Source: Rickettsia typhi (GTDB lineage Bacteria > Pseudomonadota > Alphaproteobacteria > Rickettsiales > UBA1997). Taken from it: 64,000 nt of DNA. Below the pieces are notes generated by a model, which saw nothing but the letters and a program-made list of their open reading frames with translations, did no database searches and was not told where the DNA came from. The stretch covers positions 7,140 to 71,139 of the forward strand of contig CAMCAW010000003.1 in NCBI GenBank assembly GCA_945872855.1, in the 5' to 3' direction. The translations under genes were made by a program, and so were the position numbers. Shown here in pieces: positions 30,401 to 33,113 of the stretch. Each line of letters starts with the position of its first letter. Positions within the stretch are counted from its first letter, which is position 1.

Positions 30401-33113
30401 GCCAAGCTGCAATAGAAAAAAAGGCGTTTCTGCTAATGGAGGAAATATTTATACGCCATTGCCACCAGATGTTGCTGTTGATACCAAGGCCTATGGTTGG
30501 TTTAACGAATTATGTATTGTTTCTGGATTTCAAACTAAGCTGAAGCTTGTTATCGCTCATAATACCGAAACAGGAGTGATGGGAAAATGTATTATTAGTC
30601 CATCAAGTCCATCTAAAGATTGCCCTGATGGAGGGCGTGCGCCAAATTGTTTATGCGCAGAAGCTCCGCAAGGCTTTATTAGTGACGTCGATTATACCGC
30701 AAGGCTGCAAACCCCGCGCGAGGCTGGTCTTTGCATTGATATGCCATTGCCACCATTCTGCCCTATTATCGATTATAACAAAAATCCAAACACCGATATA
30801 GCAGACTCAGAATATGTCAATAATTCGTTGGGCAAGTCATCTTACAGCACCGCTTCTGTTGCAGGAGTTCACCTAACTCACAAAGCCCGAACCGAAGGCG
30901 TCAATTCAGGATACGCAGAATTTCCTCAGGCATTACCGGGAATGCAAGACGTTCGCGGCGAATGCAAAGGCTTCTGGACTTCCGATAAAAACAGTTCTGG
31001 AATAGCATTATTTCCATTGCGAACTTGTGTAAATAATAATGGAAATGCGGTTTGGAATGCTAATGTGCAAAATCAATGCATACGTTTTTCTTGTCCTAGC
31101 ATTTTCACTGTTGGCCCAGACGCGACAGGAGTTTATCAAGCTGGTTATGGCGCTCTTGAAACTGGCGAAGCTAAGGGCACTTCTAATGGTTTTGCAATGT
31201 GGGATAAATATACCAAGGTTGGTGATTTTGTTGAAACAAGATCTGCTAACTCTTGTATTCCCGGTTTTAGGCCAAAGAATAGCTCTCCTGTTATTAAATC
31301 TGGTCTAATTACTGGATATTCATATAATATCAGCGATTTACCTTCGCGTAAATGCGATCAGCTTGGAAATTGGGGTGCGCCAACTAATGTTTGCACCAGA
31401 ATATATTGTGGAGCAATCAACATCGCAAAGCCAAAGTCTTCTAATGACGCTGCGTTGTGGGCTAAGTGGTATAATAATGGTGGCGCATCTTTTGTCTCGG
31501 TTCCAGCTTCGCGCAGCACCTCGCGCACTCAAACAGAATCAATATCTACTGGTGTTTGCGATAATTCGCTCGGCTTCTATGTAAGCCCCGGTGGAGCAAA
31601 TCCAACGCTTGAATGCGATTATCTTGGTAATTGGGGTGTAGTAAAAAATCCATGCACAACCTCTTGCGATGCCATCACTGACAATTTGCAAGCATCAAGC
31701 GGAAATAACGGTTTTTCAAAATGGGATAAAGTTACTGCGGCGCTAACTTCTGGCGGAATCGAGGGTGTCTTCAAGGGTTGCGTTGAGGGCTATATACCAA
31801 ATCCATATCCACCAGCATTAGATATTGATGGCAGGCCGTTAGATTCATCTGTTGCTAACGATTTATCGAGGAGACCAGAAAATCCAAAAAGAAAATGCCA
31901 AGTTGGCAGCTCTGTAGCAGGAGCCACTGCGGGCGTATGGGGGGCCACGATTAACGGCTGTATCAATCAATGCCCAGGAGCCGATGTTGACAGTCGCATT
32001 GGCGTTGGCGTCACTACTCACCGATTATCAAATGGCACTAGCATAGAAGCTAGATGGGCATCAACTGAACTCGGGCAATATGCATATATTACAAATTGGG
32101 CAGGTGAAGAATCTATGCTAAATGCATCATATTTTAACGGCAGCACTAGAATAACTGGCACCTATTTACTTCGCCGTCTTTGCAACAGAGCTACTGGCAA
32201 ATGGGACGAACCCACAGCTATGTGCTCTGCAAATGGTGGGGAAGTTAGCAAAGCAACATATTTTATAGATTCACTTGCTGCTGGCTATGCAAATTCTATT
32301 GTTGCAGGCGATAGCTCGCAATCTGTTTCTGGAAAATGCCTGCCTGAATATTGGTTCCATAATCGTGGCAGCGCAACCGAAGCTCCTATAAGGCAATGTC
32401 TCTTTGCTGATAATGAAAAATATATCGATAAAGTTTATCTAGAACTGGCATCTGGCAAGCATAATTGCGAGAGAAAAAAATGTCCAGATTACACTGGATT
32501 TATAGGATTTCGCGGCGCGATAAAACCAACTTCGCCCTCTTCTGAAGATGATCCAACCTTTCTTTCGGGAGGGAAGATTTTTGGTAGATGCCTTAATAAC
32601 GAAAAAAATAAAAGCGGTAGTGTGGTTTACACAACTTTGCTATCCGGGAGCAATAGTCCAAGCGTTACATGTCAAGATAACGGCGCAGGCAGCTTAGTAT
32701 GGACTACCCCAAATGAAGATGTTTGTAAGTATGGTTGTGATATTGGAGACGGTACTGGAGAACTGAATGACCATGGTGGTGATGGTGGGGTAGACTATGG
32801 GTTCCATGCCTTTAATATGGCGCATGGCGAAGCTATTGTTGTAGTAGTTACTGATAAAGCTGGAGAAGGATGTACACAGCATTTTTGGACAATGTCTTGC
32901 ATTGATGGCAATGGTTTGAGACACATCGCCCGTTTGACCGAGAATACTGACTTATGTCATAATGCAACCTACGTTCCTGAAACGCGTGGAGTTTATTTTT
33001 ATAATAGTTGGGGTGGGGGGGAAGATTATCGGGGTGCGTCTTATTCAAATGGTGGTAAATATAAGAATAAATATGGCAAGGATTCAATATTTGGAATTGC
33101 TTGGTGGGATTAA
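27423..33113 (+). CDS. Giant (~1,896 aa) secreted or membrane-anchored Cys-rich protein with C-terminal Sushi/CCP-like repeats; function unknown.
   Basis: It is an uninterrupted 5.7-kb ORF. The ATG at 27423 gives MKLTRFEK... followed by a hydrophobic segment (ACLSVLLITLVIVFS) and an AQS site. Cys residues occur throughout. Repeated C..GNW/..W...C modules fill 30957-32730. Confidence 0.8.
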   Translation: MKLTRFEKILLLLDFAKESVQKFWQKIYGSKILKASACLSVLLITLVIVFSHKPYAQSLPNCSDLPDGTAPKAGENCLYFGLPLCSSIVAPNTPQHRSNCADLIDLPLCSQIVTGGAIVAKPGKNCVGLCSDSAYNSTDPEGHPEWVRSIDYAIFNRDCIRFCDDIEVGVVKQPGVINCSERKCHQLLDGVTPVTGTNCNILPCNLLTPDELNKSKFDDETKKYCEGSDLKCYKFTQSQLPYMRLRGVNPTCLVHNCKVENAACGPNDVLNITSRGTDYAAVYSRFIYNNMDVENSTAYCKRIECKPVIQSQYRCTARTADGSTNVHSVGTIEGENAIMGDSNDIYRNPKCDDSGPGSLCGTLVLGANPSLDTLNPRTNYCYKTIDCNLAVNDKATECLLASNTGSDDSANIDPFDSWFYRPKPPTKATNDRGVILPMNSDLCYTESQMRDQNWGTKVWLFGWYWFQSSFKDLRSPGACDTNRDGARGKGYPYLCGTSGSLYSSPASDAVYFKGYATTDFSGTTPKHKVTVCTRFKNTLSLDTCGARECGINEWFSHITSQACGADVCKELIIDDANEAECIMSHNDGMDGACAATVDSYLRVRAVKYNNKICAFLDSKGQLAYNGMFMDGTETISFSDADQINPGTVCANDPTSNATAGCAGHDSNSEEGYADRWRALMRVAYVENNRPEGNTAAEYKGYLDRDGKFYKEQACPKVTMRVPPPDLYIIGNMANSEKLFVPPVNIKSASKIRGGDDAVVPSGQVYGKTDFHYPEIKVQFGDKTYRMSLGFGYTGYEDDGEEYEASPSSLTVSTVFNGKTYDASLFVKKEFFDNIGIPQFCLYRKLQDQNGLSVEPLRVACVERNIPDINNAINRQIDPSLPVRKTVIYPKGSNQYNDAKINIRYLDGGTNKLDNNCTGDDKCSPEISLANVDYKKVTCVQDVESHRLCVKREECSAIYIECMQNEVDLNNANNRNEDLNRFLSMRKYCNENLVPSCNRKKGVSANGGNIYTPLPPDVAVDTKAYGWFNELCIVSGFQTKLKLVIAHNTETGVMGKCIISPSSPSKDCPDGGRAPNCLCAEAPQGFISDVDYTARLQTPREAGLCIDMPLPPFCPIIDYNKNPNTDIADSEYVNNSLGKSSYSTASVAGVHLTHKARTEGVNSGYAEFPQALPGMQDVRGECKGFWTSDKNSSGIALFPLRTCVNNNGNAVWNANVQNQCIRFSCPSIFTVGPDATGVYQAGYGALETGEAKGTSNGFAMWDKYTKVGDFVETRSANSCIPGFRPKNSSPVIKSGLITGYSYNISDLPSRKCDQLGNWGAPTNVCTRIYCGAINIAKPKSSNDAALWAKWYNNGGASFVSVPASRSTSRTQTESISTGVCDNSLGFYVSPGGANPTLECDYLGNWGVVKNPCTTSCDAITDNLQASSGNNGFSKWDKVTAALTSGGIEGVFKGCVEGYIPNPYPPALDIDGRPLDSSVANDLSRRPENPKRKCQVGSSVAGATAGVWGATINGCINQCPGADVDSRIGVGVTTHRLSNGTSIEARWASTELGQYAYITNWAGEESMLNASYFNGSTRITGTYLLRRLCNRATGKWDEPTAMCSANGGEVSKATYFIDSLAAGYANSIVAGDSSQSVSGKCLPEYWFHNRGSATEAPIRQCLFADNEKYIDKVYLELASGKHNCERKKCPDYTGFIGFRGAIKPTSPSSEDDPTFLSGGKIFGRCLNNEKNKSGSVVYTTLLSGSNSPSVTCQDNGAGSLVWTTPNEDVCKYGCDIGDGTGELNDHGGDGGVDYGFHAFNMAHGEAIVVVVTDKAGEGCTQHFWTMSCIDGNGLRHIARLTENTDLCHNATYVPETRGVYFYNSWGGGEDYRGASYSNGGKYKNKYGKDSIFGIAWWD

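Follow-up and report, generated by a model that had tools for sequence, protein, structure and literature searches.

Seven tandem Sushi/CCP-like modules in a giant cysteine-rich protein of Rickettsiales-like bacteria

The giant gene and its modules

The stretch of DNA analyzed here—hereafter the window—comprises 64,000 nucleotides (nt) of contig CAMCAW010000003.1 (assembly GCA_945872855.1, labeled Rickettsia typhi) and contains, between murD and purE, a gene encoding a giant Cys-rich protein. An earlier note, made from the sequence alone, had pointed out in the C-terminal third of that protein a row of Cys-rich modules resembling the Sushi/CCP/SCR domain, and had left it undecided whether those modules were a divergent family of that domain or the product of convergence. 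We found seven such modules in tandem. The features of the gene are listed below, where the amino acids (aa) are numbered from the TTG at 27387 and C1 to C4 denote the four Cys positions of a module.

27387..33113, forward strand: giant Cys-rich protein gene, an open reading frame (ORF) of 1908 aa with 87 Cys, opening with TTG at 27387
27423..27596, forward strand: predicted Sec-type signal peptide, aa 13-70, read with the N-termini of 27 homologs inspected
27597..30752, forward strand: N-terminal body, aa 71-1122, with 57 Cys and no recognized domain
30759..31079, forward strand: module 1 (M1), aa 1125-1231, with C1125, C1193 (KGFW), C1214, W1223 and C1231
31092..31394, forward strand: module 2 (M2), aa 1236-1336, with C1236 (followed by Pro), W1272 (NGFAMW), C1290 (IPGF), C1323, W1329 and C1336
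31407..31655, forward strand: module 3 (M3), aa 1341-1423, with C1341, W1358/W1361, C1391 (DNSLGFY), C1410, W1416 and C1423
31665..31961, forward strand: module 4 (M4), aa 1427-1525, with C1427, W1446 (NGFSKW), C1465 (VEGY), C1504, W1518 and C1525
31971..32225, forward strand: module 5 (M5), aa 1529-1613, with three Cys: C1529 (followed by Pro), W1557, no C2, C1599, W1606 and C1613
32226..32468, forward strand: module 6 (M6), aa 1614-1694, with no C1, C1651 (LPEYW), C1671 and C1694
32481..32726, forward strand: module 7 (M7), aa 1699-1780, with C1699 (followed by Pro), C1735, C1762, W1772 and C1780
32727..33110, forward strand: hypervariable all-beta C-terminal domain, aa 1781-1908 (128 aa), opened by C1784

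The earlier note had listed six successive Cys...Trp...Cys triplets, and all 18 of the codons concerned lie in frame and encode the residues that it named (C1214/W1223/C1231, C1323/W1329/C1336, C1410/W1416/C1423, C1504/W1518/C1525, C1599/W1606/C1613, and C1762/W1772/C1780). The corresponding pattern, C-x4-14-W-x4-9-C, was found six times in aa 1191-1781, as against a mean of 0.81 after shuffling—none of 5000 shuffles reached six; across the 1300 residues of the giant protein outside that region it turned up a single time. The C-x-x-G-F/Y motifs upstream from the triplets are present and conserved (C1193 KGFW, C1290 IPGF, C1391 DNSLGFY, and C1465 VEGY), and the linkers of 3-4 residues between C4 and the next Cys are there as well: we counted gaps of that length from C4 to C1 at the M1/M2, M2/M3, M3/M4, M4/M5, and M6/M7 junctions, all within the 3-8 residues taken for a tandem array. 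Two points of the initial description nevertheless had to be amended. The array is real, but starts at C1125 (nt 30759), which residue is the C1 of M1, and not at the C2 in position 30957, and therefore spans nt 30759-32726; and to the six modules having a Trp must be added a seventh, Trp-less module (aa 1614-1694, Cys 1651/1671/1694) located between the fifth and the sixth.

The remark that the C1-C2 spacing went beyond the canonical one was borne out. We took the canonical spacing from the CCPs of factor H, which measure 53-64 aa, with C1-C2 distances of 27-34, C2-C3 distances of 11-17, and C3-C4 distances of about 10-14 residues; whereas the modules of the window measure 81-107 aa, with 36-68, 19-39, and 13-23 residues, respectively, and thus fall outside that range. 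The longest C1-C2 loop is that of M1 (68 aa), which loop contains helices; the AlphaFold model of M1 has a predicted local-distance difference test score (pLDDT) of about 90. The most canonical Sushi domain of the array is M7, which in many homologs is of 62-70 aa. Four Cys are present in M1-M4 and in M7, and three in each of M5 and M6: in the alignment of M5 to M3 and M2 the C2 position is missing, while the three Cys of M6 align to the C2, C3, and C4 of M3. The Trp between C3 and C4 occurs in six of the seven modules, M6 being the one without it, and in M2 and M3 the G-F/Y motif does not vary. In addition, M2-M5 carry a second Trp in the C1-C2 loop (W1272, W1361, W1446, and W1557; motif NGFAxW), about 97% conserved.

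When the modules were compared with one another by hhalign, M1-M4 recognized each other with probabilities of 84-96% in one or both directions and E-values down to 2e-9 (e.g., 96% and E 6e-9 for M4 versus M2), the probability being 49% when M1 was the query versus M4. M6 was aligned with M3 at 76-81% and with M1 at 65-67%, M7 with M3 at 70-94%, and M5 with M2 and M3 at 20-25%; whereas the controls, consisting of five N-terminal segments and the C-terminal domain, gave at most 5%. The profile derived from a single MAFFT alignment of 814 module copies was too gappy for use.

Relationship of the modules to Sushi-type domains

To the alternative left undecided in the earlier note—a divergent CCP-like family or convergence—the evidence gives an answer in favor of divergent homology, on the grounds of the Pfam and PDB matches of M7, the profile links among the modules, the fold matches of M1-M4, and the search with M2-M3. 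In the scan with the Pfam Sushi model (PF00084; gathering score, 20.7 bits) the window protein remained below the cut-off, but three homologs passed it, P0012 with 25.4, P0097 with 29.2, and P0102 with 25.7 bits; those matches map to M7 and M2, and the one in P0097 covers positions 1-56 of the 56 in the profile. Among 21 diverse M7 domains scanned in isolation (E ≤ 0.01), 9 matched Sushi (best E, 1e-7), 11 Ephrin_CRD, and 2 HRM, although the isolated M7 of the window gave no Pfam Sushi match. M2-M3 fragments behaved similarly at an E cut-off of 0.1, with Sushi in 7 of 15 (best E, 2e-6), Ephrin_CRD in 10 of 15, and HRM in 5 of 15 (down to E 3e-5); no Pfam family other than those three was matched by either set, and the HRM match of homolog P0026 maps to M5. 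The assignment to the Sushi/CCP class is supported as to homology, with the specification that the modules represent a two-Trp subtype that Pfam scores as HRM or Ephrin_CRD as much as Sushi.

Searched against all PDB sequences, the M7 profile retrieved CCP, HRM, or Eph-receptor cysteine-rich domain (CRD) proteins in all 60 of the matches listed, among which were CR1 (E 4.6e-6), beta2-glycoprotein I (8e-4), C1r (0.0017), and C1s (0.002), as well as the CRF receptors and EphA4. For a direct comparison we used the sequence of human factor H, verified against PDB 3gau (1213 of 1213 residues, 2970 bits), and divided it into its 20 CCPs. The hhalign of M7 with those 20 CCPs extended over all 57 columns at E 5e-5 with C1, C2, C3, the Trp, and C4 in register, the reversed control having a probability of 0.1%. 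A hidden Markov model (HMM) built from the factor H CCPs alone gave 16 matches in the family that reached 5 bits or more, of which M7 accounted for 14 and M2 and M6 for one each; there were none of that score in either the reversed decoys or the N-terminal 1120 aa. In the run in which the modules were compared directly with the factor H CCPs, M5 was the best (E 7.5e-4) and the only one above the reversed and N-terminal controls. In an hmmsearch that had concatenated factor H as the target of the module HMMs and included Cys-fixed shuffles, even M7 had a negative score, which outcome probably arises from the HMMER bias correction on a long repetitive target. The profile links from M7 to M3, and from M3 to M1, M2, M4, and M6, then tie the long modules to the Sushi-like M7.

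The structure models bear on the fold of the first four modules. The AlphaFold2 model of aa 1120-1530 (M1-M4; 41-sequence alignment) had a mean pLDDT of 91 and a predicted template-modeling score of 0.76. By Foldseek against the PDB, the CCP1-4 of rat Crry came first (E 8e-4), tied with the EphA4 ectodomain, and further Eph-receptor ectodomains, CD46 SCR1-4, PAPP-A, CR1 CCP15-17, and factor H CCP19-20 appeared among the later matches; while in the viral library, which is independent of the PDB, the top three were complement control proteins of gammaherpesviruses (E 9e-4, 4e-3, and 1.6e-2), whose alignments, of 355-423 columns, span the whole of the four-module array. In the fold check suggested in the earlier note CCP arrays were thus at the top in both libraries, but with marginal E-values and low template-modeling scores; the prediction supports, without settling, a CCP fold for M1-M4.

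The closest relatives outside the family were obtained with the M2-M3 profile, which gave 285 matches at E ≤ 1e-3 among 1.84 billion representative proteins, including variants of the family of up to 5186 aa. At E 1e-24 the profile matched P0197, a protein with 29 canonical Sushi repeats according to Pfam (854 bits). Other matched proteins contain 10-30 short matched stretches each, as exemplified by P0119 (29 stretches, E 1.5e-108), in which type of array Pfam recognizes HRM, Sushi, and Ephrin_CRD, plus fn3 and a protein kinase in P0144; examples of the two-Trp repeat are P0119, with 29 repeats, P0122, P0144, P0163, and P0193. The repeat of P0119 measures 51-57 aa, is spaced like a canonical CCP (C1-23/26-C2-12/17-C3-13/15-C4) with a linker of 4 aa following, contains two Trp, and has the motifs AxWP, GTCxxGY/F, and PTRxCxxxGxW in common with M2-M4. 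Against the 29 repeats of P0119, hhalign gave 94-97% for M1-M4 (E 1e-7 to 1e-10; M1, 94%; M2, 97% and E 1e-10), 69% for M7, 29% for M5, and 19% for M6, with the controls at 0.5% at the most.

The four array-bearing contigs that were inspected (L050, L051, L052, and L053) are eukaryotic, with exon-split genes for a mitochondrial carrier, Hus1, ribosomal L14e, Tim17, dynamin, and RING proteins, and on two of the four a kinase lies just downstream from the array. The arrays on these contigs consist of 10-30 copies of the two-Trp sushi/HRM-like repeat, often then followed by fn3 and protein-kinase domains, and in L053 three genes with such arrays are found within 11 kb; these arrays of microbial eukaryotes look like an undescribed receptor-kinase family. 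Through those matches the bacterial modules would appear as an enlarged version of a two-Trp sushi branch otherwise seen in the receptor-kinase-like ectodomains of microbial eukaryotes. Since the closest outside relatives are eukaryotic, a transfer of the module between domains of life is plausible; the module may have passed from eukaryotes to bacteria or may have arisen in bacteria.

The protein family, its disulfides, and its genomic neighborhood

A search of 5.8 billion proteins returned 118 homologs of the giant protein at 31-59% identity, which number rules out a spurious ORF. The homologs are full length (about 1830-2720 aa) except for the shorter, apparently truncated P0100 and P0108. 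Pfam and NCBIfam have no model for the family, so that its members are labeled 'hypothetical' or are unnamed, the few organism labels being those of metagenome-assembled genomes (MAGs) of Rickettsiales or Proteobacteria bacterium. Six longer relatives (P0185, P0191, P0194, P0229, P0234, and P0240; 3600-5186 aa) match the M2-M3 profile partially, at about position 1500-3300, and indicate that the family has larger architectural variants.

In a MAFFT alignment of the homologs almost all of the Cys in the mature form show 88-100% conservation. Those of the modules are conserved at 94-100% among the 118 sequences, with the exception of C1780, whose 28% looks like an alignment shift, and the six Trp of the earlier note are conserved at 81-100%; this conservation implies that the Cys/Trp pattern is real and under selection. 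Relative to the query, identity averages 37-44% in the N-terminal body, 42-50% in M1-M3 (50% in M3), and 37-38% in M4-M5, from where it falls to 27% in M6, 19% in M7, and 9% in the C-terminal domain. In homolog P0026 a complete beta/gamma-crystallin domain (PF00030, 25.3 bits) is inserted within the C1-C2 loop of M4, at the point equivalent to aa 1446-1452 of the window protein (nt ~31722-31742), which insertion indicates that this loop is exposed and tolerant of insertions.

The likely start of the gene is the ATG at 27423, equivalent to the start-Met of homolog P0004, so that the gene overlaps the murD stop by 20 nt; an identical 20-nt overlap is seen in locus L049. The N-terminus reads as a signal peptide: its n-region is basic, its hydrophobic stretch is ILKASACLSVLLITLVIVF, and its proposed cleavage lies at ...PYAQS|LPNC. 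All 27 of the homologous N-termini inspected have the n-region and the h-region, followed in most of them by a small-residue site that directly precedes a conserved LPxC. Judging from this pattern, the protein would be exported by the Sec pathway and cleaved by signal peptidase I, and the mature form would contain 86 Cys, enough for 43 disulfides. We discarded a lipoprotein, since no lipobox precedes C74, and likewise an autotransporter or a substrate of type I secretion, since no such domain was recognized.

In the N-terminal body, for which neither Pfam nor NCBIfam gave a match and the family profile found none among PDB sequences, the Cys are 88-100% conserved. This body opens (window 27620-28050, aa ~80-220) with short tandem Cys-pair units of the form PGxNC-x(2-8)-C, namely, NCLYFGLPLC, NCADLIDLPLC, NCVGLC, DCIRFC, NCSERKC, and NCNILPC, which units are more numerous and more regular in the divergent homologs P0040, P0109, and P0115. 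At the opposite end, C1784, the Cys after the last module, begins a distinct C-terminal domain and no further module; AlphaFold predicts long beta-hairpins in that domain, whose length varies from 44 to 248 aa across the homologs and for which Foldseek, with the model extending from M5 to the C-terminus, found no fold match.

The Cys counts give indications about the disulfides. M1-M4 contain exactly four Cys in 82-99% of 116 homologs, and all the deviations but one are by two. In the M2 of P0103 and P0104, C1 is replaced by Ser, C3 by Val, and the Trp by Pro, while C2 and C4 are retained; this joint loss fits a bond between C1 and C3. Together with the Cys parity of M5 and M6 given next, it lends indirect support to the C1-C3/C2-C4 pairing that would be expected of CCP modules. 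By contrast with M1-M4, the Cys count of M5 is odd (3 or 5) in all 116 homologs, while M6 has three Cys in 113 and an odd number in 115 of the 116. Under the CCP topology, C1613 (the C4 of M5) and C1671 (the C3 of M6) would be left as orphans at the M5/M6 junction, and the simplest reading is an inter-module disulfide, C1613-C1671, by which M5 would probably be joined to M6.

The two neighbors of the gene and the other feature of the window to be considered here are the following:

26045..27442, forward strand: murD, the upstream neighbor, identified by its translation, by Pfam domains in L049, and by synteny
33151..33618, forward strand: purE, the downstream neighbor, identified by Pfam AIRC (217 bits) and by synteny
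15423-17321, reverse strand: VirD4/TraG-type coupling protein of type IV secretion (Pfam T4SS-DNA_transf, 474 bits), among housekeeping genes

The loci were collected by an alignment-based scan of genome contigs, a single-sequence scan having returned none. The order murD-giant gene-purE is kept in most of 48 species-level genomes (GTDB representatives), down to 27% identity; those genomes are MAGs that carry the label Rickettsiales or Alphaproteobacteria and in many cases, to judge from the isolate name, come from lake water. The giant gene is usually single-copy, and in a few genomes (L007, L010, L028, L034, and L040) lies apart from murD. Among the latter, MAG CAZUPN01 has two copies on separate contigs (L007 and L010), with neither murD nor purE detected beside either within the loci, of which L007 includes only about 1.7 kb of upstream sequence; these copies may be paralogs or reflect a mixed bin. 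The usual neighbors are likewise missing from L028, L034, and L040, the last being labeled Lentimonas, probably through bin contamination.

The surrounding genes of the window are housekeeping ones (metE, acpS, GST, polA, and aroC), and the VirD4-type coupling protein among them is consistent with a Rickettsiales-like lineage. At the edge of the window, two forward ORFs (47-970 and 1190-1828) show matches to DUF637 ('possible hemagglutinin') and to the C-terminal part of a Tle1-like phospholipase catalytic domain, and may correspond to the toxic terminus of a protein of the polymorphic-toxin or contact-dependent inhibition type, truncated by that edge. On the reverse strand, 23214-25420 contains a pair of ORFs, one of 215 aa with a weak match to the Rickettsia protein family RP854 and one of 520 aa with no Pfam match, which pair is kept upstream from acpS-murD in the loci L002 and L049; L001, a locus that stops within the 520-aa ORF, has it in part. 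Neither tRNA genes nor Rfam families at the gathering threshold were found across the 64-kb window.

Interpretation and comparison with known systems

We propose, with a probability of about 0.72, that aa 1125-1780 constitute seven tandem modules of the Sushi/CCP/SCR superfamily within a Sec-exported protein of some 43 disulfides that would form a stalk bearing a variable binding end. In this scheme the modules would fall into a branch of the superfamily that has four Cys and two Trp and is scored alike by the Pfam models for Sushi, HRM, and the Eph-receptor CRD. M7 would have remained near the canonical size, M1-M4 would have been enlarged to 83-107 aa through insertions in the C1-C2 and C2-C3 loops, and M5 and M6, each having lost one Cys, would be held together by the putative C1613-C1671 disulfide. 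Once exported and oxidized to about 43 disulfides, the protein would have a rigid base and stalk, made up of the conserved 1050-aa N-terminal body plus modules 1-4; and M5-M7, together with the hypervariable C-terminal beta domain, would be the distal and fast-evolving end. That end would bind a partner that varies, the most plausible candidate being a molecule on the surface of a eukaryotic cell, whether host or prey. A base that is conserved, a stalk stiffened by disulfides, and a distal domain that is hypervariable make up the layout of a binding fiber or adhesin, which function would by analogy be the most likely one and would place the protein at the cell surface rather than in the periplasm.

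Several results weigh against this proposal. Neither the whole window protein nor nt 30957-32730 gave any Pfam or NCBIfam match, even at E ≤ 10; and in the fragment aa 1233-1426, M3 scores 15.7 bits with Sushi, below the 20.7-bit threshold, and a likewise sub-threshold 15.9 bits with Ephrin_CRD. Compared directly with the factor H CCPs by hhalign, M1-M4 and M6 did no better than the controls. Among PDB sequences the full-length family profile retrieved nothing at E ≤ 1 and the M2-M3 profile nothing significant, the top match of the latter being an unrelated oxysterol-binding protein (E 0.6), though six of its eight sub-threshold matches were CCP proteins. The Foldseek E-values of M1-M4 are borderline (8e-4 the best in the PDB) and the template-modeling scores low, as would be expected for a multi-domain rod, while the AlphaFold model of aa 1526-1908 (pLDDT 89) had no CCP match by Foldseek. 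P0103 and P0104 are 86% identical, so that their joint loss of C1 and C3 is a single evolutionary event. Finally, the linkage to murD and the strong purifying selection would also fit a housekeeping role in the envelope.

If, as one possibility, the modules were an unrelated Cys-rich beta fold of bacteria that had arrived at the C...C-x-x-G-F...C...W...C pattern by convergence, the module length of 83-107 aa and the C1-C2 and C2-C3 distances (36-68 and 19-39) outside the factor H ranges (27-34 and 11-17), the noise-level comparison of M1-M4 with the factor H profile, and the marginal Foldseek E-values would be accounted for. Such a coincidence is nonetheless very improbable in view of the canonical length of M7 in many homologs and its passing of Pfam Sushi, of the single superfamily that takes in every one of the 60 PDB matches listed for the M7 profile, of the retrieval at E 1e-24 of a protein with 29 Sushi domains from among 1.84 billion sequences, and of the chain of significant profile links from M7 through M3 to M1, M2, M4, and M6. 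The main rival accepts the same architecture, but makes of the protein a periplasmic, disulfide-rich envelope scaffold tied to peptidoglycan synthesis, in which the array would serve as a rigid spacer spanning the periplasm. The 20-nt overlap of the likely start with the murD stop, both here and in L049, and the murD-X-purE order in most of the 48 genomes speak for that scaffold; as do a usually single-copy gene, a constant length of about 1900 aa, and near-invariant Cys, which together suit a core component better than an adhesin, along with the failure of the Pfam and NCBIfam scans to recognize an outer-membrane anchor, an autotransporter barrel, or a secretion-signal domain. Since purE, however, is equally conserved there and yet unrelated to the envelope, the block may reflect low rearrangement only; a C-terminal domain with 9% identity and 44-248 aa is hard to explain in an internal structure; and five loci carry the gene away from murD. 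We therefore regard the scaffold as unlikely, though as the alternative to be taken most seriously.

Next in weight, and less probable than the scaffold, comes host-receptor mimicry, in which repeats captured from the ectodomain of a protist receptor kinase would be displayed or secreted as a decoy, bind the ligand or partner of that receptor, and disturb host signaling or recognition. The closest relatives of M1-M4 outside the family—repeats of 51-57 aa with two Trp, on eukaryotic contigs and followed by protein-kinase domains—would agree with such a decoy, as would the Rickettsiales-like lineage with its VirD4-type coupling protein in the window, and the repeated capture of CCP arrays by viruses, whose complement control proteins are the top viral fold matches. 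The similarity to the eukaryotic repeats is remote, however, with about 28% identity over 54 columns; the modules are heavily remodeled, with insertions conserved clade-wide; and the N-terminal 1050 aa, which are the best-conserved portion of the protein, lack a eukaryotic counterpart. The reading as a Sushi-type stalk with a variable binding end is the one that we retain.

A bolder extension of that reading, doubtful but worth stating, is that an ancestor of this Rickettsiales-like clade captured a two-Trp sushi/HRM repeat from the ectodomain of the receptor kinase of a protist host and enlarged it, the result being now a clade-defining, disulfide-locked surface fiber of 1,900 aa with a hypervariable tip that engages eukaryotic cells. 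If true, this would be an old and fixed transfer of a domain from a eukaryote to a bacterium, vertically inherited since then and turned into a core organ of host interaction; and, irrespective of direction, the array is a probable case of an ancient transfer of a domain between domains of life. At all events, an uncultured aquatic, mostly lake-water, Rickettsiales-like clade of at least 48 species-level genomes shares a giant protein one third of which is a sushi-type array, and that protein is a candidate for how such uncultured bacteria touch eukaryotic cells. The array offers, furthermore, a natural test of the extent to which the CCP scaffold can accept insertions in its loops—as large as the whole crystallin domain in P0026—and the loss or re-pairing of disulfides.

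The Sushi/CCP, characteristic of animals and protists, is a textbook extracellular domain of the former, found in complement regulators, selectins, and the GABA-B and cytokine receptors. With that domain (PF00084; factor H, CR1, Crry, CD46, and C1r/C1s) the modules have in common the four Cys, the C-x-x-G-Y/F after C2, the Trp between C3 and C4, the Pro often following C1, and the head-to-tail linkers of 3-4 residues; moreover, the M7 of homologs passes Pfam, and the best fold matches of M1-M4 are CCP arrays. In contrast to the factor H CCPs of 53-64 aa, however, modules 1-6 of the giant protein are of 81-107 aa, the C1-C2 loop bears a second conserved Trp, three Cys are present in each of M5 and M6, M6 lacks the C3-C4 Trp, and the array is bacterial, fused to a Cys-rich body of 1050 aa, and, in the window protein, below the Pfam cut-off. 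As to the role proposed here, it would resemble that of the CCP arrays of complement regulators and selectins, which act as spacers and binding surfaces.

Besides Sushi, the only Pfam families matching the modules are HRM (PF02793, of the class B G-protein-coupled receptors) and the sushi part of the Eph-receptor CRD (PF25599), which are both sushi-like folds. The HRM has two conserved Trp, six Cys in three disulfides, an N-terminal helix, and about 65 aa, in one copy per receptor; whereas M2-M5, though having two Trp (W1272/1329, W1361/1416, W1446/1518, and W1557/1606), are built as four-Cys units in tandem and therefore do not answer to the definition of an HRM. The two-Trp repeats of protists come closer, inasmuch as they share with M1-M4 the succession C1...A-x-W(P)...G-T-C2-x-x-G-Y/F...P-T-R-x-C3-x-x-x-G-x-W...N-x-C4 and the 4-residue linker; but the eukaryotic units are of 51-57 aa, are strung together in groups of 10-30 ahead of fn3 and/or protein-kinase domains, and lie on intron-containing contigs, while the bacterial modules have clade-conserved insertions of 30-50 aa.

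Sushi/CCP has been treated as an animal-type adhesion domain that is also present in apicomplexan surface proteins; and outside animals CCP modules have been discussed mainly as genes captured by viruses and apicomplexan parasites (PMC3417536). The complement control proteins of gammaherpesviruses and poxviruses are indeed a parallel, in that they are four-CCP arrays found outside animals after gene capture; but the viral arrays have stayed close to the host regulators of which they are canonical copies and are known to inhibit complement, whereas the bacterial array is remote, remodeled, and present in a lineage for which no link to complement is known. In the literature on bacterial or Rickettsiales sushi domains we found no description of this family or of any Rickettsiales-like sushi array. 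What was known, then, is the domain superfamily; what is new is its clade-wide bacterial form, with insertions of 30-50 aa, a two-Trp subtype, probably re-paired Cys in M5 and M6, and fusion to a 1050-aa body, to which is added the likewise new link between the bacterial modules and the receptor repeats of protists.

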